Assembly: GCA_973895155.1 (NCBI GenBank)
Contig: OZ316893.1
Location: 16,026,645 to 16,090,644, forward strand
Reading direction: 5' to 3'
DNA length: 64,000 nt
Source: Marsupella aquatica
Taxonomy: Eukaryota; Plantae; Marchantiophyta
Shown here one piece after another: positions 26,473 through 64,000 of this stretch (its first letter is position 1; every line of letters starts with the position of its first letter). Both the position numbers and the translations under genes were made by a program. Below the pieces are notes generated by a model, which was not told the origin of the DNA, ran no database searches, and saw only the letters and a program-made list of their open reading frames with translations.

Positions 26473-26479
26473 CCCACCA

Positions 26480-33800: not shown

Positions 33801-34147
33801 TTCAAAATCACTGTCTCTCCCGACCTGACTTGAAGTTCACCATCAATAACGCTCCATTGATGACCATTTGAATCCAACACACCGAGTGAAATCAGATTCT
33901 TATGCATGCCAGGTACATACCTGACTCCGGACACTGTGCGCACAGCGCCATCAAACATTTGAATCTTCACAGACCCAATTCCCTCAATTTGACAGGAGTG
34001 ATCATTTCCCATCAGAACTGAACCGTTTGAAATAGAGTAAGAACTGAAAAACTCACGAATGTAACAAATATGAAAAGAGCAAGCACAATCAAGAATCCAC
34101 ACATCATCTGCTCTCCTAGATGACGTGCACAGGGCATACCCCCGGCT
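30875..34147 (-). CDS. pol: Copia Pol (protease, GAG-pre-integrase, integrase, RT, RNase H) with one internal TAG
   Basis: WILDCACSFH, LWHSRLGH..CEHC, IHSDVWGP, LRSDNGGEY, QQNGVAER, YKARLVAKG, LYVDDML, GYVDSD, NPADAFTK. Single in-frame TAG at 32384-32386 in EM*SLKDNKTWELV. Confidence 0.9.
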
Positions 34148-35182
34148 TCATAAAACATACTCATCATTGAGTAAATCAGCTTCTCCATCAGCCCTAGCCA
34201 CATTTGCCGATGAAGTTTCCGCTGCCTTTCCCTTACAGTCTCGCTTGAAGTGTCCAACTTGGTTGCACTTCCAACATGTCACCTGCCTCCTCTGAGGGGA
34301 TTTACCCTTGGACTTAGATCTGGATTTAGATCTAAACTGGGTTCTACGGTCCCCAGTTGGTCGCTGCATACTCCTCCCACGGTTAACATTGAGGGCAGCA
34401 CCAGATGATGAAGGCTGTGACGTGATGTGCATGTTCTGCTGAAGATCATCACTAAGCAGAGAACTTACCACGTCATTGTATGAAATGGTATCCCTATCAC
34501 GATGCAACAACACTCGTGATAGGGACTGGTAAGATGGAGGCAATGAACTAAGAAGCTGCAGAGCCTTCGTCTCATCATTCAAAGTCTCCCCAAGGTTTTC
34601 CAAGTCAACGACCATGTCGTTGAAAGCATCCACATGGTCTTGCAACTTCGTACCAGATTCCTTCATCCTGAAACTCATCAGTTTGTAGGAAGTGTAGAGC
34701 CGGTTCGACAACTCCTTGCGGTGATACTTGCTCTGCAATTCCGCAAATAAGGACATGCAATCCTTATGTGCACCCAACTGCTTGATGATGGGAGGCATGA
34801 GATAGAGTGTAACACACCACACTCCCTGCTCCTGCATGCGGTCCCATTGTTTCTCATCAACATCGTCTTCACGAGGGCTCAACAGTTGGCCCATCCCTGA
34901 CGCATAAAGCACTCCCTTCACCTGCTTCTCCCATAGCAAGTAGTCAGAGCGCCCATCATACTTTGTCACTTCATACTTGGGTCCCCCAAGCTTGAAAGTC
35001 CCCATCTTCTTCTTTACCGTGAGCTCCGGTAGTAGTACTGCTTCCTCCACCACACGCCGCACCGGTGATGGTATCGGTGTCACGTGCTCTTCCTCCTGCT
35101 CCTCTCTCTGCCCCTGAAACCTCCGCGGTGATCCTCGTGCTTCAAGTTCCACATCTTCGAAAAACTCCTCCGAATCACTCAT
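34148..35182 (-). CDS. gag: Copia Gag
   Basis: KYDGRSDYLLW, UBN2-type region (LQDHVDAFNDMVVDL..LLSSLPPSY), zinc knuckle CWKCNQVGHFKRDC; ends in a TGA in frame with pol. Confidence 0.93.
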   Translation of the reverse strand: MSDSEEFFEDVELEARGSPRRFQGQREEQEEEHVTPIPSPVRRVVEEAVLLPELTVKKKMGTFKLGGPKYEVTKYDGRSDYLLWEKQVKGVLYASGMGQLLSPREDDVDEKQWDRMQEQGVWCVTLYLMPPIIKQLGAHKDCMSLFAELQSKYHRKELSNRLYTSYKLMSFRMKESGTKLQDHVDAFNDMVVDLENLGETLNDETKALQLLSSLPPSYQSLSRVLLHRDRDTISYNDVVSSLLSDDLQQNMHITSQPSSSGAALNVNRGRSMQRPTGDRRTQFRSKSRSKSKGKSPQRRQVTCWKCNQVGHFKRDCKGKAAETSSANVARADGEADLLNDEYVL

Positions 35183-36322
35183 ATGAGAAAGTCACAAAAA
35201 ATGTTGTTTTTCACAACTTCTCAAAAAACTCGAAACTCAACACCGCCGCGTAGCCCACAAAGCTAGGAGTCCAATACTGAAAACCGAAATCAAAATCGAA
35301 ATTTGACGGAAAAGTTATTCAAATTTCGGTCGAGGTGGGTAAAACCTTGGGAAACTCCCCCGTTTTGACCACCTCAGGGAATAACCGAAATACCAAGTAC
35401 AACCCGTTGTCGGAATTGCGATGTGATTGGTGCGCTGCATTGCCAACTTCAATGGCTACGACCTCGCCGAAAAATAACCAAAAAAGTTACCGTTCGGCGG
35501 ATGAAATCTTTGTCGGACGGTCAAAAAATAGCTCTCTGGTTTTTTGGAATATTCTATGACCCTTGTACAGGCCCTATAGGAATTTTGGAAGAACAATCGA
35601 GGGGCTGACATGTGTCCTCGAACCCCCAAAACCCCCTACCACCCTTCGTCGTCGAAATCTGGTCGCGCGCGCAGAAAATACACACGGCAGAATGTACCCC
35701 TCGACACCAAACGCAAGATATCTCACTCGGGTTTTGACTAAATCAAGATCCGATTTCAGATTTGGAAACTAGACTCCGAGGTGATGAAGATCGATATAAG
35801 AAGCACCCAAAACGAGGAAAGAATGAGGGAGAAAAAAATTGGTAAAGATGACAGATTTCTCTCAATTGCCATAGCCAATTTCGAATCAGTTTTTCAAAGA
35901 GAAAAAAATGGTACCTTGTCAACAACGAATGTTGATCAATTGCACTTGGTGCCGTCACCAAGTCCAACAAGGTAATTGATTTTGCTTAGCCTTCCTCTTT
36001 GCATCAAAGAGCCAATCCCGGACTCAAAAACAATCGTCTTGCCTCAATCTCTCCGTTGAGTCAAAACACTTGACGATTCTCCCTCTGAGTCGATTGCCAA
36101 CTTTCTTCACAAAATCCAGAACGACGAAAACTTAGATCTCTCTGCACCACGAGCTCCGTTCAACGATTTCTTCACACCGTTAGAAAGCTCTTGCCCTGAT
36201 CTATCCGTTGAGCCCATAAACTCCAAGTTCCATGCGATGGAACTCTGGAAAATCCACCAACACTCAACGCTGGAAAAACCGTCATGAAATCCCGTCACGA
36301 ACACATGTCACCTCCCAAGCAT

Positions 36323-36334
36323 GCTCTGATACCA
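36323..36334 (-). other. primer-binding site (tRNA-iMet)
   Basis: Minus TGGTATCAGAGC, 2 nt inside the 5' LTR. Confidence 0.92.
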
Positions 36335-36336
36335 AT

Positions 36337-36775
36337 TGTTGAGCATAGACGACAATCGCAACGGCAAGCCCATGAACCATCCAACGCACAATAGTCGACA
36401 CAAGAGATACGTGGTTCACCTCCTTGAGGCTACGTCCACGGGAACACACAAGAGAGCTTTACTGAACTCTAAGCCCGTCGGCTATACCGAGTCTCCACAG
36501 TGTAAGCTCTCCCTATCTCTCAAGTGGCTCCATAACAATGAGCCTTGGTTCTACCTCTCCAAGCACACATGCCTCTTATGATATAGTGTGCAACTTAGTT
36601 GTACCTAACCACATAGTTGTACCTAACCACATAGTTGTACCTAATCACGTAGTTGTACCTAACCACGTAGTTGTACCTAATCACGTAGTTGTACCTAACC
36701 ACGTAGTTGTACCAACCCACGTTGTTGTACCAACCACGTCATACCTAACCTAGACGTAAGAGTAAATACCCAACA
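36337..36775 (-). repeat. Copia 5' LTR (with GTAC array at 36596-36738)
   Basis: Copy of 30245-30683. Confidence 0.95.
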
Positions 36776-43900: not shown

Positions 43901-44360
43901 TGCGAATGAGCTGCCAATCCCGGTGTCTGAACAATCTTACCCCCACCGCACTACTTCTGCTTGAAATGCCCATTGATCGCTTATTGCCGATTGTGCTTAG
44001 CATGCAATAACCCTAATTGTACCTCTTTGTTGCCGTTACACCATCACTTCTAGCCTCGGCTCGGGTTCCATGGTTACACTTAAGTGTTTAAGTTTTTCCC
44101 TTTCCTTCCATGGACTAATGCAAATTAGTGTATACCACCCATATTTAGCCCTTAAATGCACTAGTGATTCATGGCTAGGCATCACAAAGCCAAAGCCTAG
44201 CCCTTAAGTATGCCTTAGGTAACAGCATCCCCGCCCAATGAGTCACCACCAGGCGGGTTAGAACTCAACAGTCAGCCTCTTGGTTGCCCAAAGGCAAACC
44301 ATCAACCTTTCACATTCAATCTATTTTTGCCTTCCAATGCTTTAGCTTTTGCATGTTCAT

Positions 44361-44628
44361 AACTGATCAAAAATGGAGCACCAATTGACACCCCATAAAC
44401 AAGCTCAGTGCCAAAAGGATTTGGCACTACAATGTTTGTAACTGACCGGAAATAGAGCACCAAGAGACACCCCAAAGACAAATGCAGTGATAAAATGATT
44501 TGGCACTATGATGTCCGTAACTGTTCAGGAATGGAGCACCAATCGACACCCCAATTAAGAAAAGCTTAGTGCCAAAAACATTTGGCACTATGATGTTTGT
44601 AACTAACCAGAAATGGAGCACCAAGCAA
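44361..44628. repeat. ~80-bp tandem repeat (3.4 units) with internal hairpin
   Basis: Units start at 44361, 44440, 44519 and 44601; AGTGCCAAA..TTTGGCACT inverted repeat inside units. Confidence 0.85.
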
Positions 44629-44819: not shown

Positions 44820-46604
44820 AGTTGTAGAACTCGACTACCTTAACACTTAGCTCCGGCATCGCCGACTTCAACGCCGAGCTCCCTTATGGTCCACGACCGG
44901 ATAGGCCATGCGGGGAGGACTTAGCATGGGGAGACTTGTGGGCAATGAGACGTGGCACTAGCAAAGGCAAGGAGCCAAGCTGGTGACACACACTAAAGAC
45001 TTAGGTGAGTTGAGAGCTGCTCGGGTCAAGGGGAAAGGGGCCGGACTCAAAGTCAACCATCCGGGCCCCTAGACGGCCTTTGAGTTTTGAGGGCTTGAGT
45101 GTGAGCTCCTCCTGGGCCCAAGGCCAATGGAGTTGATGCCATGGGCAACGGACGCTTGGGGCGTGAGTTATGGCCCGATCCGGGTTTGGCCGATCGGGGA
45201 CCCCAAGCGGCAATGAGACCTGAGGGCCTAGGCATGAGCACTAGGTTGGCCCGATCACAACGGGCTAAGGCACTCCGCTTGCGGACGCCTAACGAGAAAC
45301 TTATGGGCGTTACCAGTTAGTGGCGCGCCCAATATGCGCGATAGGATCCGGGTTGGAGGCCAAATGTTTAGGGACCAAAGTTGGGCTGGGGGTGGCAGGT
45401 CTCCAGAAGCATATATGAGGGGAGTGGTGTCTCCTTGGTGGCCAAGGGTGAGCCAAAGTCGTGAGCCACGGCGGTTGCGACCCGGGGTCCTCACTTCTTT
45501 TCTTCCTACCCATCACGCGCGAATAAGTATAGGGTTTTTTAATTGGGTTTAGTGAAATACTTTTAAATTTTTGTTGAAGAACATTAGGGTTATTTTAATC
45601 CAATTTTGAGAATTCTAAAAATCATAGGGTTTTTTAAAATCAAATTTGGGAATATTCTTAGAATATTCCATTAAATTAGGGGTAAAACAATTCCTAAAAA
45701 AAACTTTATTGACTTAACTTTTAGGGTGTTTATTCCCCCAAAACTTCGCGCGTGATATGGAACACCCCTTGGATTGAGGCCCCCGAGGGTTGCGACACTA
45801 AGGGAAAGCACCAAACAGAAACGACGGGAAGTCCGTTGGAGGACTTCTTGGGTGCATTGGAAAGCTCTCAAGGAGGGCTATGTCCTCCCGAGCTCAACTT
45901 GGTCTGGGGGCACCATGGGTTCTCAAGGTTTGTGGGTGTTAGCTGGCCCGCTTGCCAAATCCTATCGAACAACAGCCAAGCCGTGTTCAGTCTCCCAAGG
46001 GAGCTTGCGTTAGGGAGGCAAGGCCAAGTAAGCGTGGAGGTTGAGTTCCAAGGGTGCTCGGCCCCTAGACCATCAATGGGGCAAACCGGGAGTTGGTTGC
46101 TAGAGTTGGGGTCATTTTGGTCCCGACGTGTTGGGACAAGCTTTAGGACAAGCTACGCTAGTTGGGCCATGAGCATGTCCTAGGGTTAGGGCGGTCAGTT
46201 GGTGATGGATAGGTACGAGTGGGAACCCAGGCCGTGCCCAAGGAAGGAGTTGTTCTGGACAAACAATGGGCGTGGGTTCTCGTTCCGGCTTATGGCATCG
46301 GGAGGACCTATCACTGACCTATTTACTAACGTCTGTTGAGCTTGAGTTAGGATGCTAGACTTGGCGAGTCTAGATCCTGAAAGGTTACTTACCGAGGTGC
46401 TTGGTTGCTTGTGCAGATAATGAGGACTGTTGAGTAGCGGTCGTTTTGGAGAGCAAGTACGGCTTCATACGGGAGGGGCCGCTAGCGGTGCAAGGGGCAC
46501 TAGGTTGCTTGCTCAAGGTATTCCGTGGAGGCGTTCGGGCACCAGGGGCACTTAGGCGTGAGTGCTGGGATTGGTGAGGGCGCTGGGTGACAAGGTCCAC
46601 CACT
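44820..46604 (+). mobile_element. solo LTR of the Gypsy family at 48106; AGT...ACT termini
   Basis: Colinear with 48106-49533; perfect TSD GGATG (44815-44819, 46605-46609). Confidence 0.92.
45481..45787 (+). mobile_element. MITE copy 2 (inside solo LTR)
   Basis: Absent from the homologous LTRs; TIR CCCGGGGTCCTCA / TGAGGCCCCCGAG; TSD GGTTGCGA. Confidence 0.88.
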
Positions 46605-48105: not shown

Positions 48106-49533
48106 AGTCGCGGAACTCGACTACCTTAACACTTAGCTCCGGCGTGGCTGACTCCGACGCCGAGCTCCCTTATGGTCCAGGCCCGGATAGGCCATCCGGG
48201 GAGGACTTAGCATGGGGAGACTTGTGGGCAATGAGACGTGGCACTAGCGAGGCAAGGAGCCAAGTTGGGGACACACACTAGGACTTGGACTAGCTGATAG
48301 CAGGTCGGGTCAAAGGGAAACGGGTCAGGCTCGAGGATGGCGGTCCGGACCTCCAGATGGACTTTGAGTTCTGAGGGCTTGAGTGTGAGCTCCTCTTGGG
48401 CCCAAGGCCAATGGAGTTGACGCCATGGGCAACGGATGCTTGGGGCGCAAGGTAGGGCCCGATCCGGGGCTCCAAGTGGCGATGAAACCTGAGAGCCTAG
48501 GCATGAGCACTGGGTCGGCCCGATCGCAACGGGTTAAGGCACTCCGCTTGCAGATGCCTAACGAGAAAGTTATGGGCGTTGCCAGTTGGTGGCGCGCCCA
48601 TTATGCGCGATAGGATCCGGGTTGGGGGCCAAATGTTTAGAGACCAAAGCCATGGGGTGGCAGGTCTCCAGAAGCATATATGAGGGGAGTGGTGTCTCCC
48701 TGGGGGCTAAGGGCGAGCTGAAGTCGTGAGCCGCGATGGTCGCGACTCTAAGGGAACCGCCAAACGGAAATGGTGATATCTTCCCAATGAGAAGTCTGTT
48801 GGAGAACTTCTTGGGTGAATTGGAAAGCTCTTGAAGAGGGCTACGCCCTCATGAGCCCAGATGGGTCTGGGGGTACCTTAGGGTCTTGGGGTTTGCGGGT
48901 GTTAACCTGCCCGCTTGCCAAATCCTGCCGAACAGCAGCCCAACCACGTTCAGTCTCCCAAGGGAGCTTGCGTTGGGGAGGCAAGGCCAAGTAGGTGTGG
49001 AGGTTGAGTCCCAAGAGTGTTTGGCCCCTAGACCATCTGTGAGGTGACCCGGGAGTGGATTCTAGGGTTGGGGCCATTTTGGTCCCGACGTGTTGGGACA
49101 AGCTTTAGGACAAGTTACGCTATTTGGGCCATGAGCATGTCCTGAGGTCAGGGTGGTCAGTTGGTGATGGATAGGTACGAGGGGGAACCTGGGCCGCGCC
49201 CAAGGAAGGAGCTGTTCTGGACGAACAGTGGGCGTGGGTTTGCTGACCTATTTACCAATGCCTGTTGAGTTTGAGTAGGATGCTAGACTTGGCGAGTTCT
49301 AGATCCTGATGGGTTACTTACCGAGGCGCTTGGTTGCTTGTGCAGATAGGGAGGACCATTGAGTAGCGGTCGTGTTAGAGAGCAAGTGCGGCTTCGTATG
49401 GGAGGGGCCGCTGGCGGTGGAAGGGGCACTAGTTTACTTGCTCAAGGTATTCCGTGGAGGCGTTCGGGCACCAGGGGCACTTAGGCGTGAGTGCTGGGAT
49501 TGGTGAGGGCGCTAGATGGCAAGGTCCACCACT
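48106..49533 (+). repeat. Gypsy 5' LTR (1428 bp, AGT...ACT)
   Basis: AGTCGCGGAACTCG...GGTCCACCACT, then TG and the PBS. Confidence 0.9.
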
Positions 49534-49535
49534 TG

Positions 49536-49547
49536 TGGTATCAGAGC
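49536..49547 (+). other. primer-binding site (tRNA-iMet)
   Basis: TGGTATCAGAGC. Confidence 0.92.
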
Positions 49548-49766
49548 GATTGCTGGCATAGACACCGGGCCGGGGTAGTGCTAAGTCGGAATCCAAAAAT
49601 CTTAACGGAATTTTGCAGGGACTTAGTGCTTCAACGTGCCTGACGGGTCGACTGCAGGCAGATTTGGTCGCTAGGAACATGGCTAAAAACACTCGATCAA
49701 AGAGTGGCAAATAGGCTCCCCCACTAAGGGGAGAGCCCAAGTTCAAGATGAACTGAAGGAGGACGG

Positions 49767-52700
49767 ATGTCTTCCCTAGATGAATGTTACAAGCAGGATG
49801 AAGAAGATGTAACGGCCAAACTGTCGACCGCAGCGGCAAACACGTCAAGTGCAGAGCGCTATTGACTTAAAGGGAAGGAGGTGGCTGATCCTTTAGAGGA
49901 TGGGTCGGATGATGACAACTCCGATGCAACTAGAAGCGAGGACGATGCTGAAGCGAAATCAAAGGAAGAGGGTTAGGACCCAGAAGAGGGACTGATCCCA
50001 GCCTTGAGAGGGTTGAACGCGAAACTAGAGGATGATGTCAAGCCGAACGTCATCGTGGATAATTTGACCAAGGAAAACCAGGGCAATGCGGGTGATGCCT
50101 CAGCCCCGGGAGGTCATGGTGCTTGCAAGATGCGGGGGGTGTCACCAAAATCCACGAGAGAACCTAAGGACAGGCGGCCCGCAAAGGAAAGACCGTTGGA
50201 GGACCGTCCTCATACAACCCGCAAGGGCCCAGCCGCTGACAATAGTCTGGGTCCGTTGACTCAAGACCAACGACTCATTTATGAGCAGTTGGAACACAAC
50301 AAGGGGGCCAGATTAAGTACTTACTTAGTCTGGGTAGTCAGAGTGAGATGCATCCCGAGGGGGGAATGGTAGTTGGACAGAGTATGTTCCAAGTGAACCA
50401 GCTACCGACTCCTCCAACTTACGACGGGGCCTACGAGCAGAGTGGACAAAATTTCCTGAGTTGGCTCTCCACAATGGAGATTCATCTCCAAGCGTGTGTT
50501 GAGCGTTCCACTTGGGCTACTGCAGCCGCTCTGTACCTGAAGGACTATGCCTTGACTTGGTACAAGTCATGGAAGAAGTCACAAGAGGACTCCTCCTTGC
50601 CGTTAACTTGGAAAAACCTGGTTGAGGGACTCCGTGCTCATGTCACCACTAAGTACCTTGAGTGGCACGCTCAAAAATGTGTAAACGAGATGAGCTTCAG
50701 TGGTGATATCCAAAAGTTCATCACTTATTACCAGAACCAGTTGGCGTGTATCCCGGCGGGACAAGAGACCCTACATACACAGCTTCACAACTTTATAGTG
50801 AAGCTCCTGCCATTGCTTAGGGAAAAGTTACAAGAAAAGCGTCATGAGTTCAAAACGCTTTCTGACAAGGCCACTACGTTGGTGAATAACCGATCAAACT
50901 TGGCAAAGGTGGGTGGCAAGGGATCCGAGGGGGAAACTGGGAAAGAAAAAGGTCCAAGGAATAAGTGTAAGCAACCTGAGGGGGCGGGGGCTAGTGGTTT
51001 GGATCCCTAGCCCTAGAATGGAGAAGCTAAGCAAAACCGGAAGGCCGACAACTTCAAGAAAGGAACCTCATCGGCGCAGAAAGCAAAGAAGCAGGCACTC
51101 ATGGAGTAGAGGCAAGCGGAAGGTTCGTGCTTCACGTGTGGTGCCATGGGCCATCAAAGTAAGGATTGTTCCACGAAAAGTGGCAAGCCGAGTGGAGATG
51201 GAGGGGCGAAGAGCATTAAGGTAAGTATCGCTCTAACCGAACCCTTAGTAGCTGACAAGGTCCCTGTAGGGGATGTTCCTGCCGGAGAGAAGGTGTTGTT
51301 GCGAGAGAAGATACCTAAGGTTAAGACAATGGATCCTGAAAAACTGATTTTTGTGAATGTCACTTCTAACGGTAATTTGGGTGTTGCTTTGGTGGATACA
51401 GGCGCGACCGCCTGCTTCATAACTGGGCAGGCGGTAGCACGTCTTGGGGTGGATGTGCAAGAGTTGCTACAACCGTTAGTGTGCAAGTTTGCCAATGACA
51501 CAAAGGGGATAGTGTCGAGAGTAGTACATAGACTTCAAGTAGAGGTCATAGGCGAACAACAAAATTTTGTTAGTTAGGAGATGTTCTACGTCCTAGACGG
51601 TCTAGCTGTAGACTTCATTTTATTGGTAGGTTATCTCAAAAAGTACAATGTTACCTTGAAACCGGGGGGTGAGGTGCTCCATTTTCCCAATAAGGGCGGT
51701 GAGCCCATCGTTGTACACAAAGTTACCAAAAATAAAGAAAGATTTCTTAAAGTAAGTAAAGTGTCGTGCTTGTTTCCGTGTGTATCGGCGAAGCAATGGT
51801 GGAAAGACTTCAAGGGTGGACATGAATGTTTATTCTTTCATCTCCACCCAACTAAGGAGGCTGCTTTGCAGCCAAAGGTCAAGTCAGCTAAGGTCGGGCC
51901 CGACTGCGGTTGAAAATTCCTGAAATTTTAGAGGAATTCTACGATGTGCTCTCGCAGAAGCTACCTAAAGGTTTACCCCTGCGGAGAGAAGTGGATCACC
52001 AAGTTGAGTTGGAGCCAGGTTCGGCTCCTCAGGCTAAAGCTCCTTATCATCTGAACCTGAATGAGCGAATGATGTTGAAGAACGCCTTGGAAGAGTTGAT
52101 CGACCAAGGGTTCATTCGCCCTAGTAAGAGTCCTTATGAGGCGCCCGCGCTGTTTGTGTCCAAAAAGGATGGTACTTTGAGATTGTGCGCAGATTACCGG
52201 GCCCTCAATAAGCAGACGGTAAAGAACAAGTACCCGTTACCTCATATGGATGACCACTTCAATTGCCTCTCTGGGGCTAGGAAGTTTTCAAAGGTGGACT
52301 TGCGATCGGGGTATTACCAGATCCACATGGCTAAGGGAGACGAGTATAAGACCGCGATGCGCACAAGGTTCGGATCCTATGAGTTTTTCGTTATGCCGTT
52401 CGGGTTGTGTAATGCAACCGAAACGTTCATGAAGATGATGAATACCATCTTCCATGACTTGTTGGACCAAGGGTGGTAGTCTTTATTCATGACATCCTAA
52501 TCTACTAAAAAACGTTGGAGGAACATGAGCAGTTGCTCAGAGAAGTGTTCTCTCGCCTTCGTAAGGCTCATCTCTTTGCTAAACCTAGCAAGTGCAAGTT
52601 TGCGATGAACAAAATTCAGTTCCTCGGCCATACCTTTACCCCGGAAGGGATTACGCCTAGTCAAGACAAGCTTAAGGAGATCAAAGAATGGGAACGCCCG

Positions 52701-54465
52701 TCCAATGTAAGGTAGGTTAGAGCCTTCTTAGGATTTACGGGGTTCTATCGGAGATACATGAAAGACTATGCGAGGATCGTGAGGCCCCTAAACGTGCTAA
52801 CGTTGAAAAACAAAGTGTTTTTGTGGACAGAGGATTGCGAGTTAGCATTCCTAGAACTTAAGCAGTTAATGATTACACCACCGGTTCTAAAGTTACATGA
52901 GATGGGGAAGCCGTCCGAGATTTGGACAGACGCAAGTGATTATGCCATTGGCGTCTATCTTCACCAAGATGGGCGTCCTGTGGCCTTCGAGTCATGCAAG
53001 TTGGAAAATCATTGGATCACACCGGAAAGGGAAATGTATGCTATGATCTATGTGTTAAAGAAGTGGGAGATTTACCTTAAGAACGGTCCCAAAGTGGTAA
53101 TCCACATAGATAGCTCGCCGGCCGGGTACTTGAGTTCTAAGCCAAGACTGAACCCCAAGGAAATGCGCTGGCAGATGTTCTTGGCGGATTTTGATTTCGA
53201 AGTCCGCCACGTTCCAGGGAAGACAAATACGGCAGCTGACGCATTATCGCATAAGGACCAACATCGTGTCAATGGGATCACGATGCTCGAATCCGAGTGG
53301 CCAAAGGTTTTGGCCGCAGCATATGGGGATGACAGGTTAGCTAAGGAATGGCAAAGCAATGGGGGTAGCCAAGGCAAGGTAAGGCACGTATTGTTGGGGT
53401 TGGATACGACGCATAATGTTCAATTATGGCAATACAAGCAGAGGCGTGTGTACATACCAGAGTCTCTAAGGTTAGAGGTTCTGAAAAAGTACCATGACTC
53501 GCCCTGGGGAGGGCATGGAGGACAAGCCGCTACGTATCGCAGCATGTCGCGAGATGTGTATTGGCCGGACATGAAGCAATCGGTCCTTCAACATGTGCAA
53601 AGTTGTTACTCGTGCCAAAAGAACCGAACAGTCTATAGGGCAAAAGGAGGACTGCTCCAACCCTTACCAGTAGCTGTGGCTCCATGGGAGTCTATCTCCA
53701 TGGACTTCATTGTTGGGTTACCTGAGTCCCACGGCAATAACTCCATCTTAACAATTGTGGATTGTTTTTCCAAGATGGCGTATTTCCTGCCTACTATGAA
53801 GATGGTTTTGGCACGAGAGGTTGCCGGTCTAGTGTTTGACAATGTCTTCCGACAGTGGGGATTGCCGTTGCATATCCTATCCGATTGCGATACCAAGTTC
53901 ACGGGCCACTTTTGGAAGGCGTTGTTCCGGTTATCCGGAACAGACCTGACTAGGGGATCATGAGATAGATGGCCAAACGGAACGGGTTAATGGTATTGTG
54001 GAGGACTACTTGCGTCACTTTGTGACGGCCAATCAAAAGGATTGGGCAAAGCACTTAACGATGGTCGAGTTTAGGTATAACTCGACCAAGCATTTGGAGA
54101 AGGGGTTTGCGCCGTTTGTGTTGGCCACAGGGAGGATGCCAAGGGCGCCCTCCTGGTTTATAAATCCTGAAGCTTGGCGGACGGAAAGCAAGGTCCCTTC
54201 TACGGATGATTTTATTCAAGAGCGACGCCTAGTTGTGGAAGCGGCTACCAAGGGTATGACCCTTGCCCAAAGTCGGTACAAGGAGCAAGGGGATAAACAT
54301 CGATGTCAGGTAAGCTTTGAAATTGGGGAGAGTGTCTGGTTGCAGTTGAGACCTGAGCAATACCACGGGAACATAAGTAGGAAGCTGGCTCCCAGATATG
54401 CGGGGCCCTATCGCATCATACAATGGGCCCACAAGGATAATCCGGTTTTGGTGGTGTTGGAATAA
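49767..54465 (+). pseudogene. Gypsy gag-pol pseudogene (gag, CCHC, protease, RT, RNase H, integrase truncated)
   Basis: [110 protein letters not shown]; multiple stops and frameshifts. Confidence 0.93.
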
Positions 54466-55102
54466 TCAGATGATTAAGCACCGAAAGACCACACCGTACA
54501 ACCCAAGAGCTAATGGGCTAACCGAAAGAGCTAACGGACTAATGGGAAAAATACTGAACAAAATGGTGGAGGCACATAAAACTGATTGGGACATTAAAGT
54601 CCACTCTGCTTTATGGGCCTACAGAACCGCAGAAAAGATTACCACCTTAAGGACACCATTTTATTTAACTTTTGGTATGCATAGTGTTACCCGCATTGAA
54701 TTTGAATTACCTACTGAGCGGCTTCTGATCTCCGAGAGATTACCTGAACTTGATAGTTTCCACACTAGGCTGGAAATTCTAGATGAATTGGAAGAAAATA
54801 GGCTTCTAGCCTTACAACATACTATTCACCAACAAGACAAACGGAAGATAGCCTATGACAAGAACTTAAAAGTACAGACACTGCAACCGGGAGACTTGGC
54901 TCTTGTTTATGACTCTAGGTATATGTTTTTCCCGGGGAAGCTTCACACTCACTGGATAGGCCCTTACAAAGTGGTTACTGTATGGCCAAATGGGTCTTTA
55001 ACCTTGGAAACCTTGGAAACCTTGGATGGAGAACCTCTTGCAACAAGAATAAATGGTTTCAGGGTGAAGAAATATTATTTACCTCATTCTGAAGGCTTGT
55101 GA
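54462..55102 (+). pseudogene. C-terminal integrase fragment of a second, non-chromovirus Gypsy
   Basis: KHRKTTPYNPRANGLTERANG..DWD..SALWAYRT..TPFYLTFG..GKLHTHWIGPY..NGFRVKKY; followed by PPT GAGGAGAGGG (55119-55128). Confidence 0.88.
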
Positions 55103-55131
55103 GGGCACGGCGCCGCTTGAGGAGAGGGCTA

Positions 55132-57254
55132 TGTAAGTAGTGGGTAATTCCAAAAGCATGAAGAAACTGAAAATTTTTAAATTTTTTATGGTGTTTAAAC
55201 TCTAATTATTGCTAACATAGCGGAGATAGCATTCTGTCTACAAGTTACGGGTTCCCAAGTTTAAAGTTACGAGTAAACTCCCGTTACGAGTTTACGAGTT
55301 TACGAGTTACTAGTTACTAGTATCCTGGTTTACGAGTTTATGAGTTAGCGATTGATTACTAGTTACGACTTTACTAGTTACGACTTTACTAGTTGTGCCT
55401 TGCGAGTCGGCGACTGGTGATCGCGACGTCTTACGGCTACTTTCAACGGGACTTAACAACGGGATGGCGAGCGCGTATTGAAGTAAAGGCAAGTTAGACC
55501 TCGGGCGCTCACTCCTGACTTAATTCCTGCCTTCTCCATTGATTATCCCGGCCTCCCCATTTCTTTGCGCTACTACAAGAAACAATTTGAGCTATGGCTG
55601 ACCTGGGAGTTGATGAGCAGTACCGAGTTGATGCATTGGCAATTCCTAAGAGCGTAGTCGCTCGAATCCCACAAGCGCCCGATAGTTATGCGAATTTATA
55701 GACTTCATTACAACAGCTAGGTTTGGGGCATCTACTTGTCGTTCCTTGGGAAGTAGAGCTCGACTCATACTTGCAAGATTTTGTGAAGGGATCAGTGCTT
55801 GCTCCTGAATTTCGACAGACTATTCGAGCACGACCCAGCTTATGGACTGTGGAGCAAATTGCTCATGCCTTTCGCTGCCCTTCAGAAGGAGAAGGATTGT
55901 ATTCGAAGAAGAAAGATTTATCTACACCCTACTTCTCTGGGATTCGCAATCTCACAAATGGCTGGAATTTAACACAGTGTACTTATCCAGATTTGAGAGT
56001 GCTTCTGGAATTTCTAGTACCCATTTTACACCCGAAAAAGCCAACCATCTGTCCAGTGGCTTTGGTGAATACAATTGTAGCTGCACACAGTGGAGCCATC
56101 CAGGTGAATTGGGCCTTGTTAATTTTCAATGTGATGAAGGATCAGGTGAGGACCATGAAGGCAGGCAGACCCACTCATCTGCAGGTTTATTTGTCCCAAC
56201 TCTATCAGTCTTATGATTGTTTATACCCAGAGGAGAGAACGGAAAGAGGGTTACTCCTGATTGAGTTAGGCATTGAAGAAGACATAAGTATGGAAGAACC
56301 AGTGGATGCTATTCCCCTGGATTCTCATGATCAGAATGTGGATGAGATGGAATTTGAAGGTACACCTGCTCATAACTTAGAGTTGGTTCGACACCCCCTG
56401 GATAACCTGGTGTATTCACCAGGAGTTAATATGAGAGATCAATCTGGAGCTGAAGGAGATGAATACTTCTCTGAGCAACAAGAAGGTGTTGCAGATCCAA
56501 CTACTGCTGTCGACCTAAGGACCAGTTTATTCACACCTTCAAAAGCACAATCGAATCAGCAACTCATTGATAAGTTGACATCTCTTCTCAGTTGCAGTGA
56601 TGTTGGTCTTTATGATGCTTTCAATAATTTAAGAATGGAAGCTGTCAGTTTGAAGTCACCATTCCCTGACCAGTTAAGCCCTATTAGGATGACCTCTCCC
56701 CCAAGAGAGTCAACACCAATGGAATATGTGACTCTCGCCCCTACTCCTCAACAGGTCCCCCTTCTAAAATCAAGTGACCCTGTTCCAGTAACAGACAATA
56801 TCAGCTGTGCAGCTATTGTGGATGAACTACTGGAGATACTACAATGTGAACCTCAACAGATAGTGTCTGTAGTTAGCAACTTGGTGCAGCAATGTCCCAC
56901 TCCTACCCCTTCTCCTAGTACAAGATCCCACCCTTACAGTCCTGATTCCAATTATGAACCCACAGAAGGACCGCCCTACCATCAGTCACAATATGAGCCC
57001 CCTTATGTTCGAGAGGACCTACCTGAAGATTCTGATCCCCCCTCTAATTTTGATTCCATTCGATCCTATGATAACACTTTAACACCATCACCAAGGCAGG
57101 GATTTGAAGATGTTGACACTACCCTAAGGTCTAATCCCAACTTAGTAGCAATTGTCACCTCATCTACTCAAACACCCCGGAATGCCACCATCGAGAACAG
57201 ATATCCGAGACCTCCAGAGTTCAAAGTACGCAGGTATGTGGAGACTTGTAAAAT
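55132..57254 (+). repeat. 3' LTR (truncated) of the second Gypsy, copy X
   Basis: TGTAAGTAGTGGGTAATT begins 3 nt after the PPT; homologous to 60591(-) TGTGAGTATTGGGTAATA. Confidence 0.75.
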
Positions 57255-57279
57255 TGATCTCGAACTCATAGATTCATGA
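55594..57279 (+). pseudogene. LTR-embedded accessory protein, copy X (TAG at 55699, 3'-truncated)
   Basis: MADLGVDEQYRVDALAI..LEFLVPILHPKKPTICPVALVNTIVAAHSGAIQVNWALLIFNVMKDQV..RYVETCKI; paralogue of copy Y. Confidence 0.8.
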
Positions 57280-60200
57280 TCAACTAGTTTAACACAAAGA
57301 AGAGGCAAAAATGCATAACTTTACCATAGACTACACTAGTGGTGGAGGGGTTTTATAGTAAAAAACCTACAGGGTAAGAGGTCATAGGGTCGAAGAGACA
57401 TGCCTCTTCATACCTCTCAAAAAGTTAAAATGGCAATTCAGTAAGTGAAAAGCCGGAAAAGTGGCTAAGTATGAACCCGTAAACCCTTAGAAGCGTAAAA
57501 GCGTAAAAGCGTAAAAACGTATAAGCGTAAAAGCGTATTCCGGTACACTTAAAAACTTACAAATTCAACTATTTTTAACTTTCTACTCCTGGTCCGAAAA
57601 ACTCTGAAATTTTGCCAGTAGGGTTTTCCTAGGTACAGACTACCTATTGAAGAAGTCTCATAGCTTTTAAAGCTCTATAACACATTTTGAAAAATAGGGA
57701 AAGATGCACTATTCTTAAAACTAACTAAAAACACTTAGACTACTCCTCAAGCTTGTTGTCGGATGTCTTCTGGTTCGAGAAGCTCCACGAGGGTAACAGT
57801 CCGAGCTTGAGTAACTTCCATCAGCTCAGCCTGGCGTGGGGATCCTCGAGAGTAGGGTAGGCATCTCAGTTGCCTTTCAGGATACATCAGGGGCATTCTC
57901 TTCCTTAGATAACATATGTCTATTTGAAGAGCTTCTCTATACATCCCAATCACGTCATAATTATTGCAAGTAGCAGCATATACTTGGGGATAATGGTATA
58001 GGAATTCATCAGAGTTCAGCATCCTGGAATAGAAAGGGTGAAGCCTCCATTTGACATCTCTGAAATACCGGTTGAAGTTGGCTAGAGTTTGAGAGGTGAC
58101 ATTGTTCCAGATTCTTTGTTTCTCGGCTAATGAACTGGTTGAAACAAGGGTAACCTTGGGCTCTCGAGGAAGGTAAGCGTTCTGGGGAGAAGTAGATTTC
58201 TTACTCTGCATGAGAAAAGAAACCACAAAATCTAGGGCATAAGCTACCAAATTTCCAAAATATGCCAGAACTAAATCTGGATCCTCCACCTCTACATCAC
58301 CCTGAAGTAGCATCACAACAAGAATAGGTTGGAAGTAGAGAGAGTCAGTCCAGAACTCATTGAATTGTGCCATCTCTACTCTGGAAGTTCCAAAACACCT
58401 GAGGTCGAAGATATAACTGGCCTCTGTCTTCTTGAGATAGTAGTATCTCCAGAACTCTCCAATCGGTGGTCTGTTGGCCTGCATTATCTTACAGGTCTCC
58501 ACATACCTATGCACTTGGGACTCTGGATGTCTCGGGTATCGACTCTCGATGGTGGCATTCCGAGGTGTCTGAGTAGATGAGGTGACAACTGCTATTAAGT
58601 TTGGATTGGATCTTAAGGCAGTATCAACATCTTCAAATCCCTGCCTTGGGGATGACTCAAGAGAATTATCATAAGATCTATAAGTTTCACCATCTGAGGG
58701 TGGATCAGAGTCTTCAGGTAGATCCTCTCTGCCGTAAGGGTGCTCATATTGTGACCAATTGTAGTGGGTCCTTCTGTGGGTTTGTAGTTGGAATCAGGGC
58801 TGTAAGGTTGCGAACCTGGGCTAGGAGTGGGACTAGCAGTTGGACATTGTTGGATCAAGTTGCGGACCACGGATGCTATCTGTCGAGGTTCACACTGAAG
58901 TATTTCTAGCAAGTCATCCACAATGGCCACACAGCTGGTAGTATCTGCTACTGGAACAGGTTCACTTGTTTCTAGGGGAGGGGGCTGACATACAGTGATA
59001 GAAGTACAAATCACAAACTCCATTGGTGCTGGTTCTCTTGGGGAAGAGGTCATTCTGACAGGACTTAGCTGATCATGAAATGGTGATCTCAAACTAACAG
59101 CCTCCATTCTCAAATTATTAACAGCATCATATAGTCCATCATCACTGCAACTGAGGAGAGATGTCAACTTATCAATAAGCTGCTGATTCGACTCTGCCTT
59201 CGAAGGAGTGGACCTGGTGGTCACATGAGGAGTAGCATCAGTTGGTGTAGCAACATCGTTGTTGATGAATGTTCCTTACTCCTTCAACTTCTAGTGGATC
59301 TGCACCTATGGTCCGACTGGGAGAATGCTCATCACTCATTGGATAGTAATCGACTTCCCTGCTATGCATAGGAGAATGTGTAGGGACTTATAATGAAGTA
59401 TCCTCCATAGGAACATCAGCATTCTCCTCAACGTTCTGATCATTCGAATTCAATGGGGTGACATGTACAATGTCCTCCATGGGAATTTCTTCTTCAATAC
59501 CCAGGTCAATCAGGAGTAACCCCCTCTCTGTCTCTTCCTCTAGATATAAACAGTCATGGGTATAATAGAGCTGAGAGAGATAATTATGTAAGCAAGTGGT
59601 CCTCCCTGCTTCCAAGCTCCTTACTTGATCCTTCATTACATTAAACAGAAGTAGGGCCCAATTTACTTTTATAGCTCCACTGTGAGCAACTACAATGGTG
59701 TTAGCCAAGGCCACAGGACAGAGAGTTGGCTTTTTCGGATGAAGAATGGGTACCAGAAATTCCATGAGTACCTTCAATTCAGGATAAGTACACTGGGACA
59801 AGTTCCAACCATTCTTGGAATTTCGAGTTCCTGAGAAGTATGGAGTAGATAAGTCCCGCTTCTTGGAATATAATGCCTCTCCTTTTGACGGGCATCCAAA
59901 GGCGTAAGCAATTTGCTCAACAGTCCATAGGCTGGGGTGAGCTCGAATCATTCGCCTGAATTCAATCGGGATGATAGTCCCCTTCACAAAATCCTGCAAG
60001 TAGGAGTCGAGCTCGACATTCCAGGGGATCTTGAGCAAGCGCTCCAATCCTAAGTGTTGTAAAGAGTCTTGTAAATTAGAAAGACTATCAGGCGCTCGTG
60101 CTATACGAGCTGCCACTACTTTTGAGACTGCTAGAGCTTCAATTTGATACTGTTCCTCAGCACCCAGGGTCGCCATTGCTGCGATGGTGATTTGCGTGCT

Positions 60201-60591
60201 GCAAAGGTTGCTTTCGAAGAGAAAGAGCAAGTGAATAGGGGTGGTGAAAAGACAGGACTGAGTGCCTGAACTCTGTGCTTGATTCCTATCAAGGCATGAA
60301 GTCCCCGTTCCATTGCTAAGTCCCGTTGCGAAGTTAGCCGTAGCGCCGTAACGTGAACTTTCCTTAAAAGCGTAAGGCGTAAGCCGTAATCCCGTATTGG
60401 CGTAAACTCGTAATATCATAAACCTGTAAACCCATAAACTCATAACGCTTATACGCGTAAATGCATAATCCCGTTATAAAGTATACCCGTAGTTTACACT
60501 TGGCACTTTAATAGCAACAGTAGGTTTAAACACTGTAAAAAGTTTAAATTTTTCAGTAATTTCAGGTTTTCGGTATTACCCAATACTCACA
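57255..60591 (-). repeat. LTR of same family, copy Y, inverted, inserted in the host 3' LTR
   Basis: Starts TG at 60591, exactly where host LTR homology resumes (TAGGCCATCC); left end tentative. Confidence 0.7.
57747..60176 (-). pseudogene. LTR-embedded accessory protein, copy Y (about 800 codons, disrupted)
   Basis: ATG 60176 MATLGAEEQYQIEALAV..; pieces 60176-59388, 59224-58613 and 58514-57747 are colinear with copy X and extend it by a ~250-aa C-terminal domain. Confidence 0.8.
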
Positions 60592-61996
60592 TAGGCCATC
60601 CAGGGAGGACTTAGCATGGGGAGACTTGTGGGCAATGAGACGTGGCACTAGCGAGGCAAGGAGCCAAGCTGGGGACACACACTAGGACTTGGACTAGCTG
60701 ATAGCGGGTCGGGTCAAAGGGAAATGGGTCAGGCTCGAGGATGGCGGTCCGGACCTCCGGATGGACTTTGAGTTCTTAGGGCTTGAGTGTGAGCTCCTCT
60801 TGGGCCCAAGGCCAATGGAGTTGACGCCATGGGCAACGGATGCTTGGGGCGCAAGGTAAGGCCCGATCCAGGTTGGGCCGGTCGGGGGCCCTGAGCAACG
60901 ATGAGACCTGAGGGCCTAGGCATGAGCACTCGGTCGGCCCGATCGCAATGGGCTAAGCCACTCCGCTTGCGGATGCCTAACGAGAAAGTTATGGGCGTTG
61001 CCAGTTGGTGGCGCCCATTATGCGCGATAGGATCCGGGTTGGGGGCCAAATGTTTAGGGACCAAAGCTGGTCCGGGGGTGGCAGGTCTCCAGAAGCATAT
61101 ATGAGGGGAGTGGTGTCTCCCTGGGGGCTAAGGGCGAGCCGAAGTCGTGAGCCGCGGCGGCGCGACTCTAAGGGAATCGCCAAACGGAAATGGTGATATC
61201 TTCCCAACGGGAAGTCCGTTGGAGGACTTCTTGGGTGCATTGGAAAGCTCTTGAGGAGGGCTACACCCTCATGAGCTCAGCTGGGTCTGGGGGTACCTTA
61301 GGTTCTTGGGGTTTGTGGGTGTTAACTTGCCCACTTGCCAAATCCTGCCAAATAGTAGCCCAGCCACATTCAGTGTCCCAAGGGAGCTTGCGTTGGGGAG
61401 GCAAGGCCAAGTAGGTGTGGAGGTTGAGTCCCAAGAGTGTTTGGCCCCTAGACCATCAATGAGGTGAACTGGGAGTGGATTCTAGGGTCGGGCCATTCTA
61501 GTCCCGACGTGTTGGGACAAGCTTGGGACAAACTTTAGGACAAGCTACGCTATTTGGGCCATGAGCATGTCCTGAGGTCAGGGCGGTCAGTTGGTGATGG
61601 ATAGGTACGAGGGGGAACCCGGGCCGCGCCCAAGGAAGGAGCTGTTATGGACAAATAGTGGGCGTGGGTTCTGGTTTCGGCTTATGGCATCGGGAGGACC
61701 TATCGCTGACCTATTTACCAATGCCTATTGAGCTTGAGTAGGATGCTAGACTTGGCGAGTTCTAGATCCTGATGGGTTACTTACCGAGGCGCTTGGTTGC
61801 TTGTGCAGATAGGGAGGACCGTTGAGTAGCGGTCGTGTTAGAGAGCAAGTACGGCTTCATATGGGAGGGGCCGCTGGCGGTGCAAGGGGCACTAGTTTAC
61901 TTGCTCGAGGTATTCCGTGGAGGCGTTCGGGCACCAGGGGCACTTAGGCATGAGTGTTGGGATTGGTGACGGTGCTGGGTGGCAAGGTCCACCACT
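60592..61996 (+). repeat. Gypsy 3' LTR lacking first ~82 bp
   Basis: Highly similar to 48188-49533; ends GGTCCACCACT. Confidence 0.9.
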
Positions 61997-62001
61997 GTAT
62001 G

Positions 62002-64000
62002 GCACGCGTGATGTAATACCGCTTAACCCATGCTAAGCACTACAAAGTAGACTTAGAATCCGTAGTTATTAGCATAGCGACACAAATTAGCTAGTCATGA
62101 TGTTTAGGAGCGTGTTATGGCCGTCTACCTTGGATCCGTATAACTGATCCAGAGGCGGCGCTCTAGCACGCCCTGACCCAAACTTGAGGGGTGGTTGGTA
62201 CACTTTGGGCGTGAGGGGCTCGGCCTATCAGAGTAGGAGGAGCTGATCGGTCGATGCACCACAAGGGTATAAAAGGCAAGCTCTTCCCCGCCTCTAAATC
62301 ACTAGTTCACTCTCCGCGCCAGCTTTGCTCTCATCTCCTCTATTTTCCCCTTAGTAATCCTGGGCACACCCTGCCATATGTCTGTCACGATTATGTCCAG
62401 TTCTACCATTTGCTTTTGGTTTCAAGTTTTAAGCGTTGGTAACCATCTTGCGGCCTCGCTCGCAAAGCACAATCCACGCAAGTACAAAGCCAAAAAGTAG
62501 TACAAACAACTTATATGTTTGAACGGGCATTCTCACTACAACAACAACCTTAACCTTCCATTCAAGAGCAAGTATTGTCGGGACGACAAGATAGCCAAGT
62601 TCTTCTTTGAGGGAACAAAGTACCTTGGCTTTGGAGAAGCACTCCTCCAACTCCCGGACGAGGTTTACAAGATCCCGGGCATAGTGGACTTATAGCGCCA
62701 TCACTTTGACAACATACTTGCTCGGGTGCAGTCCTTCCTTGATTGTTGGTTTGGTAATGACCTAAACCCGGGTGGACCATCGTCAACCTCAGCATCGCTC
62801 GGCTTCCCTGCTGGAATGTTGGGCCCTATGGCACCTCCTCCAGCAACACCGGCGGCCAGTGCATAGGCGCAGACCCCACCCCGGGCATCCTCAAGCCGCT
62901 CCCCACCACCAGTCGCACCGCTCGCTTGGGTACGATCTGTGGTGAATGCGGTGAACCTAAGCTCGGAGGATGAGGAGGTTCCTCCACCTCTTGTCTAGAA
63001 ACCACCAGGGATGCACCAACCCGGGATGGGTAACACATTGTCATCCCCACAAGCCCGAACCCGAGAGGCGGCCCCAGTAGACAACACGGTGACGGTTGCA
63101 GCCTCGACACCAGTTCTAACGGCGATAGCAATACCACCGCCAGATAGGGAAGAGGGGGAGATGTCCCCCTCCATGAGCCACCCCAAGAACCAATCTCGAA
63201 GTAGGAAGAGGAAGGAGCCAACTACAATATCTAGCTTACCCGTGGCCACCGTCGTAGTGGCCAAGTTGACCATGCAACGCATGGGGGAGAATGTCCACAA
63301 AAACATTCTCCACCCAAAGCATGCATCTTACCTGAAGACCCAAGGGTTTGAACACCTTGCCGCCCTCCCTTGGAACACTTGCAGGTACTACGGGCAAGAT
63401 ATGATGGAGTTCATCTAGAACTTTGACGAGGCCCGCCAACAAACCCGTGCGCATGGACGGGTAATGTCCCTAACCAAGGAGCGGCTGAAGCTCATCTTTG
63501 GTCTACCTGAGGGACAAAATCGGGTGGAATCACAAGCCCTGGGGGCAAGGGAGCAAAGTACCAATCTTCTAGCTTCCTGGCTGAGGGTTCGGTGGACAAC
63601 AGCTTCCTGATGAGGACATGCCTCATCCCAAAGATTGCAGAGCGGCTGGAGTTTCAGAGGTATGCCCTCCACATGATGGAGCCACAGGGTGAGATATTCG
63701 CCGCCCAGGTGATCCAGGTCAAGAACTACCAGCCTAGCAAGTGGGCTTCTTTCTTTGTCAAGAAGTTCCACAAGGAGATGGAACGACAAAGGAAAACCTT
63801 GTACCTCGGGGGAAGGCGTACCTTGCAAGCCACATCAAGATCATCATCAAGTGGTACGCCCGTTTCAATTGATGAACCATTCCGAGGTGCAACGAGCCAA
63901 ACTCACCCCGGCCAGGTGGGTCTTCCCGGCTTAGAAGAGGCGGCCACAACCCAAGAGCCAAAGACCAGCGGTTGTGGTGTCCACCCCGACCCCACAAACA
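62002..64000 (+). mobile_element. element related to 20264-26020 with degenerate accessory ORF (about 62760-63960); runs off window
   Basis: AIPPPDREEGEMSPS..RKRKEP..MGENVHKNILHPKHASYLKTQGFEHLAALPWN closely matches 24291-24872; the upstream non-coding region is also homologous. Confidence 0.75.

Follow-up and report, generated by a model that had tools for sequence, protein, structure and literature searches.

Our preferred reading of two related units in the window, the 64,000-nucleotide stretch of Marsupella aquatica DNA that was analysed, is that they derive from a liverwort Ty3/gypsy family with an ~808-aa gene in the U3 of an ~3.35-kb LTR, and that this gene encodes a predicted VANC/PMD-like DNA binder, likely an antagonist of host silencing directed at its own family. 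We assign this combined reading a probability of roughly 0.47. Considered by itself, the placement of the accessory gene inside the LTR, in its U3 part, is probable. More tentatively, a VANC-fold gene and its target repeats may have moved into a liverwort Gypsy LTR, each LTR or solo LTR then being a self-contained cassette that would maintain the activity of the family in trans. An intact 808-aa homologue (P0002) was found in public data, while the gene copies in both units, X and Y, are broken.

Architecture of the locus

The two copies are nested in a Gypsy element, H (48106-61996, TSD GTATG), which is different from the X/Y family. A block containing both copies (54463-60591) stands in place of the H integrase end, its PPT and the first ~81 nt of its 3' LTR. 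The features are as follows, in window coordinates.

48106..54462, + strand: 5' part of host Gypsy element H, with degenerate gag-pol
48106-49533, + strand: 5' LTR of H, with AGT..ACT ends
within 48106..54462, + strand: PBS-like TGGTATCAGAGC of H
54463..55102, + strand: integrase C-terminal fragment of the X-type Ty3/gypsy element, fused to H at ~54462
55100-55102, + strand: integrase stop TGA
55119..55128, + strand: polypurine tract GAGGAGAGGG, followed by CTA and then TG at 55132
55132..57254, + strand: copy X, likely the U3 (5') part of a 3' LTR, cut at 57254
55594..57254, + strand: accessory gene copy X, interrupted by a stop at codon 36 and truncated ahead of the C-domain; identity to P0002 is 70%
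57255..60591, - strand: copy Y, likely an LTR without its 3' end; a 3337-nt unit with TG at 60591
57351..57357, - strand: TATA-like motif ~390 nt past the gene stop, a candidate genomic-RNA promoter
57747..60176, - strand: accessory gene copy Y, ~810 codons, disrupted by one stop and, judging from the tblastn pieces, by two or more frame changes
60592..61996, + strand: rest of the H 3' LTR, 94.5% identical to the H 5' LTR, with the TSD GTATG after it

X and Y are truncated relatives with 73-79% nucleotide identity that lie in inverted orientation and join tail to tail at 57254/57255, and they are therefore not two LTRs of one element. Alignment of sequencing-run contigs to the window showed the X/Y family to be repetitive. 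No RNA data set was among the sequencing runs listed, which has no bearing on whether the gene is expressed. Among the aligned contigs, loose ends were observed at 54461-54462, where the integrase fragment is fused to H; none of the loose ends listed (24/8413 and 12/501) fell at either TG start.

The nearest named relatives of the integrase fragment are from Calypogeia fissa (60%), Riccia sorocarpa (55%) and Marchantia (51%), and 115 integrase homologues, with top identities of 50-72%, carry Gypsy-type RT, RNase H and integrase Pfam domains. By its sequence the X-type element is a member of the Ty3/gypsy superfamily, and we infer that its integrase is of non-chromovirus type. Summed contig depth, which is not a copy number, was several-fold higher over the gene than over the integrase, and the same contrast in summed depth, again not a copy number, was observed for H, with its LTR above its interior. 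Of the majority variants within X among sequencing contigs, 5 of 17 were synonymous, a small, tool-chosen set that is unsupportive of selection.

Position of the gene relative to the LTR

As the first-pass annotation had reported, the X unit opens with TG 3 nt past the PPT, and the ATG codons of X and Y lie 462 and 415 nt inside their units. The alignment of the two units begins at the first TG, with 80% identity over 75 nt (E 1.7e-10), and it is possible that X may start 2 nt earlier, at TA 55130. A purine tract is present 15-35 nt past the integrase stop in X and in three distant relatives (L002, L003 and L004), and TA follows it within 0-1 nt in all four, whereas TG is absent after the tract from each of the three relatives. 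Given that TA is conserved after the PPT but TG is not, the LTR may begin at either dinucleotide. In L002, the arrangement is integrase (58% aa), PPT, ~180 nt and ORF (41% aa); the sequence of another relative, L001, opens only ~80 nt ahead of the ORF and gives no information about gene position.

Copy Y had been taken to start exactly at an insertion junction. The homologous TG is indeed present at 60591 on the minus strand, and Y starts within 0-3 nt of the junction with foreign DNA, but this is not a clean integrase junction. Four nucleotides at this point, ATAG, are common to H and to the CTA-T after the PPT of X, and the other end of Y is lost, leaving no checkable TSD; the microhomology and the lack of a checkable TSD together make the junction weaker proof than had been assumed. 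It is possible that the junction arose from a deletion or from cDNA capture, and a random deletion would be expected to land only rarely on the homologous start base of Y. At its other end, Y is considered to be cut at 57255 because two contigs of sequencing run X4 continue past this position with different letters, and a candidate CA end is possible ~9 nt beyond it.

A sequence-motif scan of the interval between TG and ATG detected no CA+TGG site in X and one in Y, at 60315, without a counterpart in X, and neither a Met-type PBS nor a conserved LTR end or TATA was found there in X or Y. The sole TATAWAW match in the non-coding flanks of the two copies is the one after the gene, and a TATA-like word is also present at the corresponding position in a related subfamily (loose end 57367). 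The gene is thus likely in U3, since the ATG has no PBS-like site ahead of it and the one TATA-like motif of the flanks is found past the gene.

Searches for full-length elements gave no match among viral contigs, only two integrase-end contigs of ~2.2 kb among genome contigs, and only two contigs of ~1.8 kb among metagenome contigs; none of the three sets yielded an element with both LTRs, an LTR 3' end or a PBS. The five members of the intact P0002 cluster are on contigs of 3376, 3376, 3494, 3513 and 3869 nt, and these lengths, near that of the unit of at least 3337 nt, weakly suggest assembly breaks at LTR ends. The proposal of an LTR of at least 3.3 kb holding the gene stands as likely, as an extrapolation from X and Y, since the LTR 3' end, the PBS and a second LTR lie outside the window.

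Several other arrangements would place the gene elsewhere. The common layout of extra ORFs, according to the available portion of one paper, is a sense-oriented position between pol and the 3' LTR (PMC7264820), and an Athila-like ORF of this kind would be internal, before a short downstream LTR, with the purine tract not a functional PPT and the Y junction a microhomology deletion. The 4-nt microhomology and the lack of TG after the tract in 3/3 distant relatives are consistent with this layout, but the position of the tract 15-35 nt past the integrase stop and the TA after it in 4/4, with Y breaking exactly there, argue against it, as do the ~3.4 kb P0002-cluster contigs, which fit a bounded unit, and the sequence of Y between gene stop and TATA, in which no second PPT+TG was seen; we consider it improbable. 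It is also conceivable, if highly improbable, that the LTR is short, at ~0.4 kb, with the gene as an ORF of Ogre type located upstream of gag, in which case X would be a tandem junction sharing one LTR. Both Tat elements with extra ORFs upstream of gag (PMC4408406) and tandem elements (PMC11042837) are described in the accessible parts of these papers. However, X and Y have no conserved LTR end, PBS or TATA where such a model would place them, and L002 would also have to be a tandem junction, with only ~180 nt for LTR and PBS. We give very little credence to the possibility, named in the first-pass annotation as one that would overturn its reading, that the unit opening with TG is a separate mobile element inserted by chance after the PPT. 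Y is without its own integrase in the window and the region is heavily nested, but the same integrase-PPT-ORF order in L002, with parts that have diverged in step, makes such an insertion unlikely.

The accessory protein and the TTACG clusters

With residence in the LTR as the preferred placement, the gene itself could be described from Y and P0002. The Y gene consists of a predicted VANC/PMD-like N-domain (~codons 1-235), an acidic/Pro-rich linker that holds the repeated helical units, and a helical C-domain; its 810 codons, ending at 57747, agree with the ~800 first estimated. The C-terminal domain of ~250 aa is seen in the intact P0002, and of the helical unit reported as repeated, L..L..(I/L)L.C, two occurrences are present in each of X, Y and P0002, compared with one in each of the distant homologues P0007 and P0028. 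The family comprises 308 cluster representatives at E<=0.001, and in the window HMMs of both domains matched only X and Y. In a plain hydropathy scan for an env-like transmembrane segment, the highest 19-residue value was 1.73, inside the helical C-domain.

The accessory gene evolved under purifying selection: dN/dS was 0.169 (bootstrap 0.123-0.223; 504 codons), and 0.116 for the N-domain. Selection had been suggested earlier on the grounds that similarity between the copies was strongest in the domains, and the dN/dS check bears out the suggestion; the similarity claim was only partly upheld, with pN of 0.153 in the N-domain versus 0.150 in the alignable rest.

Structure prediction had been proposed as a check, and it gave a candidate relative for one domain. 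The AF2 model of the N-domain (pLDDT 94.4) had VANC21-DNA as its top Foldseek match, at a non-significant E of 0.38. VANC21 was also top in a VIA structure search, with Z 7.3, rmsd 5.4 and 216 residues aligned (the next row had Z 4.2 and 60 aligned), and a second VIA search gave Z 7.5, a moderate result given that Z 7-8 with this tool is typical of best matches without a clear relation. Across searches, 208-216 of 235 residues were aligned, with rmsd 5.1-5.4 and 9% identity. A profile search of PDB sequences with the N-domain did not return VANC21 at E<=1. By language-model features, the nearest families to the N-domain are Transposase_32/ATHILA, with 22 of 30 ESM Atlas matches carrying Transposase_32 (score 0.90). 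Pfam searches returned no family at E<=0.05 for P0002, X or Y; PF20167 (Transposase_32) matched 2 of 114 homologues at E<=1, the best at 0.005, and PF10536 was absent from the 25 families listed for these 114. The N-domain is predicted, on modelled structure and language-model features, to most resemble the VANC / PMD / Transposase_32 / ATHILA group.

The C-domain, by contrast with the N-domain, matched no fold. It had no match among PDB sequences and none at E<=0.001 in PDB and BFVD by Foldseek; its best VIA Z was 4.0, its ESM Atlas matches were all <0.9 and a homologue search returned one homologue only, results that do not in themselves establish a new fold. The first-pass description of the gene as an undescribed system does not hold in that form, as the N-domain is predicted to resemble a group already carried by plant Gypsy elements in internal regions; what is new is the likely LTR position together with the unplaced C-domain.

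Short TTACG words cluster on both sides of the gene.

55244..55440 (approximate), + strand: upstream cluster of X, with 9 copies over 462 nt, against a mean of 1.6 and a maximum of 5 in shuffles
60340..60500 (approximate), - strand: upstream cluster of Y, with 7 copies over 415 nt, against a mean of 1.1 and a maximum of 4 in shuffles
57475..57540, - strand: downstream cluster of Y, with 5 copies over 492 nt, against a mean of 0.7 and a maximum of 3 in shuffles

Each of these counts (9, 7 and 5) exceeded all 300 shuffles, for a motif that was picked by eye rather than blind. Of the 51 TTACG words of the window, 21 fall in the 1.37 kb of flanks, all on the coding strand, and the 182-nt spacer of L002 contains 7 TTAG words. 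By analogy, the clusters around the gene resemble VANC target arrays; in U3, short repeats also commonly serve as enhancers for host factors.

Proposed function and relation to known systems

Under the preferred reading, the genomic RNA would have its start close to the TATA past the gene and would hold the gene once, in the 3' U3; reverse transcription would then copy it to both ends of the element, and solo LTRs would keep it. Expression of the gene would require a separate transcript, made either from a promoter without a TATA within the first 0.4 kb or by splicing, the latter possibly using the pyrimidine tract before the ATG. If the gene does reside in the LTR, there is a slightly better than even chance, judged by analogy, that the N-domain binds the TTACG arrays of the family's LTRs and keeps off DNA methylation or H3K27me3, in a manner modelled on VANC and MAIL1/MAIN at their motifs. 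The C-domain might recruit or block a chromatin factor.

It is also possible, though rather unlikely, that the gene is in the LTR and its protein is not anti-silencing, acting instead as a transactivator, an integration-targeting factor or chromatin tether, or a particle scaffold. The N-domain fold match is moderate, function does not follow from a shared fold, and the C-domain matched no fold. Moreover, the accessible parts of the literature predict that Athila-domain/VANC proteins oligomerise and have many host contacts (PMC13547354) and state the role of the Tat/Retand extra ORF as unknown (PMC4408406, PMC11963269). In favour of an anti-silencing role, however, the structural relatives whose function has been tested, VANC and MAIL1/MAIN/MAIL2, counter silencing at short DNA motifs in the accounts available, and TTACG clusters adjoin the gene.

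Among plant non-chromovirus Ty3/gypsy elements, the consulted portions of four papers describe the Athila ORF (PF03078), Transposase_32 (PF20167), Ogre PMD (PF10536) and Retand TRP28 (PF04195), as well as LTRs of up to ~5 kb (PMC6317226, PMC7264820, PMC4408406, PMC11963269). As described there, these extra ORFs are likewise large, in sense to pol and downstream of integrase, but they are internal-region ORFs with named Pfam families, whereas that of the X/Y family follows the PPT and probably belongs to U3; for P0002, Pfam gave no match and the C-domain is unplaced. For moss Tat-like elements, the available text reports no extra ORFs (PMC4408406). VANC, encoded by VANDAL Mutator-like DNA transposons (VANC21, PDB 9LNJ/9LNK), recognises short motifs within non-coding tandem repeats and removes DNA methylation from its own family, according to the accessible part of PMC5735166. 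It resembles the X/Y family in short-motif arrays in non-coding DNA around the gene and, with a moderate match, in the predicted N-domain fold, and differs in being on a DNA transposon rather than a retrotransposon, in being described in the accessible text as dicot-specific (PMC13547354) and not from a liverwort, and in its motif, YAGTATTAY versus TTACG; protein identity is 9%, and the X/Y activity is predicted only. VANC shares structure with MAIN/PMD (PMC13547354; 10.1101/2024.09.27.615353), and its structural group includes the PMD proteins MAIN/MAIL1/MAIL2 and the Gypsy-encoded PMD-A, with PMD clades described from angiosperms in the parts available (PMC5418596; 10.1101/2024.09.27.615353); the X/Y homologues, in contrast, are without a listed PF10536.

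LTRs are normally non-coding. Among retroviruses, MMTV sag and the overlap of HIV nef are U3-encoded genes, likened here by position alone: residence in U3, and hence doubling at both ends by reverse transcription. The X/Y gene, at ~2.4 kb, makes up most of the repeat. Solo-LTR formation is the usual host way of disarming LTR elements; if the gene is in the LTR, this process would leave it behind, and each remaining solo repeat would hold a putative counter-defence gene. Annotation pipelines that seek extra ORFs only in internal regions would be expected to miss such genes. Our literature search, within the portions of the papers available, found no description of an accessory ORF inside a plant LTR, a statement on which the REXdb supplements may bear as regards ORF positions, and none of a retrotransposon VANC-like factor.

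If correct, the more tentative reading, in which a VANC-fold gene moved into the LTR with its target repeats, would make this the first VANC-like system described from a retrotransposon and would date the VANC/PMD anti-silencing fold to the retrotransposons of early land plants. Whether PMD originated in Gypsy elements or in host genes is presented as an open question in the accessible text of PMC5418596, and finding a member of the VANC/PMD group in a bryophyte retrotransposon would be relevant to it. The function of plant Gypsy extra ORFs is likewise treated as a long-standing open question in the parts at hand of PMC4408406, PMC7264820 and PMC11963269. Here ~3.3 kb brings together the gene, a fold proposed for its product and a possible target motif, and with P0002 as an intact homologue this question becomes directly testable in a liverwort model.

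A rearranged locus with two broken gene copies

Self-comparison of the window revealed that X and Y, two truncated copies of one Gypsy family unit that each carry an accessory gene, are inverted relatives: they are 80% identical in the first 75 nt, and two coding blocks show 73% and 79% identity. Both lie within a different Gypsy element, H, as follows.

48106-61996: Gypsy element H; LTR ends AGT..ACT, TSD GTATG, LTRs 94.5% identical
54463-60591: X+Y block inside H, replacing the H integrase end, the H PPT and the first ~81 nt of the H 3' LTR
55132-57254, plus strand: copy X, inverted relative of Y
60591-57255, minus strand: copy Y, inverted relative of X

The copies meet tail to tail at 57254/57255, where the gene of X is cut just before its C-terminal domain (C-domain) and the downstream non-coding DNA of Y begins. 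Beyond 57255, two contigs of run X4 carry different letters, indicating that Y is truncated there as well. Because X and Y are inverted, cut and embedded in H, the locus is a rearranged relic and not a two-LTR element. The X gene (ATG at 55594) reaches a stop at codon 36, and the Y gene (60176-57747) has a single stop along with two or more frame changes; with both gene copies broken and no LTR end present, the locus alone is a poor exemplar of an accessory gene in an LTR. The H family has LTR ends of AGT..ACT rather than TG..CA and 5-bp TSDs, and an H solo LTR at 44820-46604 (TSD GGATG) is split by an insert of ~300 nt near 45482-45780.

Conservation and predicted fold of the accessory protein

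P0002, a homologue of 808 aa with an intact reading frame, matches the X and Y pieces at 57-74% identity, and three of the five members of its cluster are 808 aa long. A search of 1.84 billion representatives returned 308 matches at E<=0.001; among the 150 matches listed, the majority were to the N-terminal domain (N-domain) and 13 to the C-domain. One homologue is named from Calypogeia fissa, and the closest named relatives of the X integrase are from Calypogeia, Riccia and Marchantia, which makes a liverwort host likely. Comparison of X with Y over 504 aligned codons gave a dN/dS of 0.169 (bootstrap 0.123-0.223), with 0.116 for the N-domain and 0.222 for the remainder, confirming the selection suggested in the first-pass annotation. 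The accessory gene is real and conserved, and it has evolved under purifying selection.

Pfam had no match for P0002, X or Y, and Transposase_32 was weakly matched in 2 of 114 homologues. In the ESM Atlas, the N-domain adjoins Transposase_32 (22 of 30 matches, 0.90) and ATHILA clusters. Structure prediction, also proposed in that annotation, yielded a confident model for the N-domain (pLDDT 94.4) and a helical bundle for the C-domain (pLDDT 79). The best Foldseek match to the N-domain was VANC21 bound to DNA (E 0.38). VANC21 also led a wide VIA search (Z 7.3, rmsd 5.4, 216 aligned; runner-up Z 4.2, 60 aligned), and a second VIA look gave Z 7.5; the match spans the whole N-domain and stands above the other matches, but its Z falls in the tool's middling range. 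The C-domain had no match in the ESM Atlas, PDB sequences, Foldseek or VIA.

Position of the gene relative to the LTR

X shows the integrase stop, then the PPT, CTA and finally TG, the point at which the gene-bearing LTR had originally been proposed to start. L002, a metagenome contig from a distant relative (integrase 58% and ORF 41% identical), has the same integrase-PPT-ORF order with a spacer of ~180 nt. This retained order disfavors chance insertion of an independent element behind the PPT, the alternative raised at the outset. A motif scan found no conserved LTR end, PBS or TATA in the TG-to-ATG stretch of X and Y, and its sole TATA-like motif lies about 390 nt downstream of the gene, together suggesting a long-U3 layout. 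Contigs encoding the P0002 cluster are 3376-3869 nt, near unit length. We estimate a probability of roughly 80% that the gene resides in the LTR, which would be an unusual position; its place behind the PPT is directly visible, and the surrounding DNA would be U3. The proposal of an LTR-internal gene draws support from the order in X and L002, while the Y junction is ambiguous and searches of viral, genome and metagenome contigs found no full-length element of the X/Y family.

The TG of Y had been placed exactly at an insertion junction. Its start does adjoin H, but ATAG is common to Y, H and the post-PPT letters, and loss of the far end of Y precludes a TSD comparison. Y may have been inserted by integrase, or a cDNA end may have been joined through short homology, as has been described for Tf1 (PMC11042837); both routes treat the Y start as a natural DNA end. 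Plain deletion is also possible, but needs a coincidence of position.

The dinucleotide after the PPT is TA in all four integrase-linked copies (X, L002, L003 and L004), with TG only in X, so the LTR terminus may lie 2 nt upstream. This TA (window 55119-55133; L002:859-875; 3' ends of L003 and L004) hints at non-TG LTR termini. L003 and L004 are two contigs of the genome collection that belong to a cyanobacterial MAG; both encode a plant-type Gypsy pol, 53-55% identical to the query, and are likely host-plant contamination.

TTACG motifs, known counterparts and neighboring repeats

The three non-coding flanks contain 9, 7 and 5 copies of TTACG, all on the coding strand, each count exceeding 300 of 300 shuffles; they hold 21 of the window's 51 copies. 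The L002 spacer is instead rich in TTAG (7 in 182 nt). Short motifs within non-coding tandem repeats are the binding sites of VANC proteins, which demethylate the family they belong to (PMC5735166); MAIL1/MAIN/MAIL2, which are structurally related, counter Polycomb at short motifs (10.1101/2024.09.27.615353; PMC13547354). The most likely reading is that the accessory protein would be a family-specific DNA binder opposing silencing, with the same LTR holding both its gene and its TTACG targets; we infer its expression route, motif binding and anti-silencing activity.

It is well established that non-chromovirus Gypsy elements of plants can carry additional ORFs with PMD, Transposase_28 or Athila domains; published descriptions place these either ahead of gag or between pol and the 3' LTR (PMC7264820, PMC4408406, PMC11963269), in contrast to the probably LTR-internal ORF of X and Y. 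Within the openly available main-text literature, we found neither an account of an LTR-internal ORF of this type nor one of a retrotransposon-encoded VANC-like factor.

A second repeat family occupies about 62012-64000 (plus strand) and about 26000-23970 (minus strand), with a start-like piece near 47030. Immediately after its TATA-like motif comes a long, degenerate ORF, which the domain HMM search of the window did not find. The middle of this ORF weakly matches the profile of the accessory N-domain (hhalign probability 44%, E 2.4e-4), and the ORF may represent a further accessory gene within or beside an LTR. Adjoining the start of this family is a DUF4283 fragment (25984-26544, minus strand), which we take to be LINE ORF1-type. 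The window also contains a 79-nt tandem repeat of about 3.4 copies (44353-44624) and a young Copia element (30245-36775, minus strand) with gag-pol broken by in-frame stops and 439-nt terminal repeats that are 99.8% identical and contain an 18-nt tandem array.
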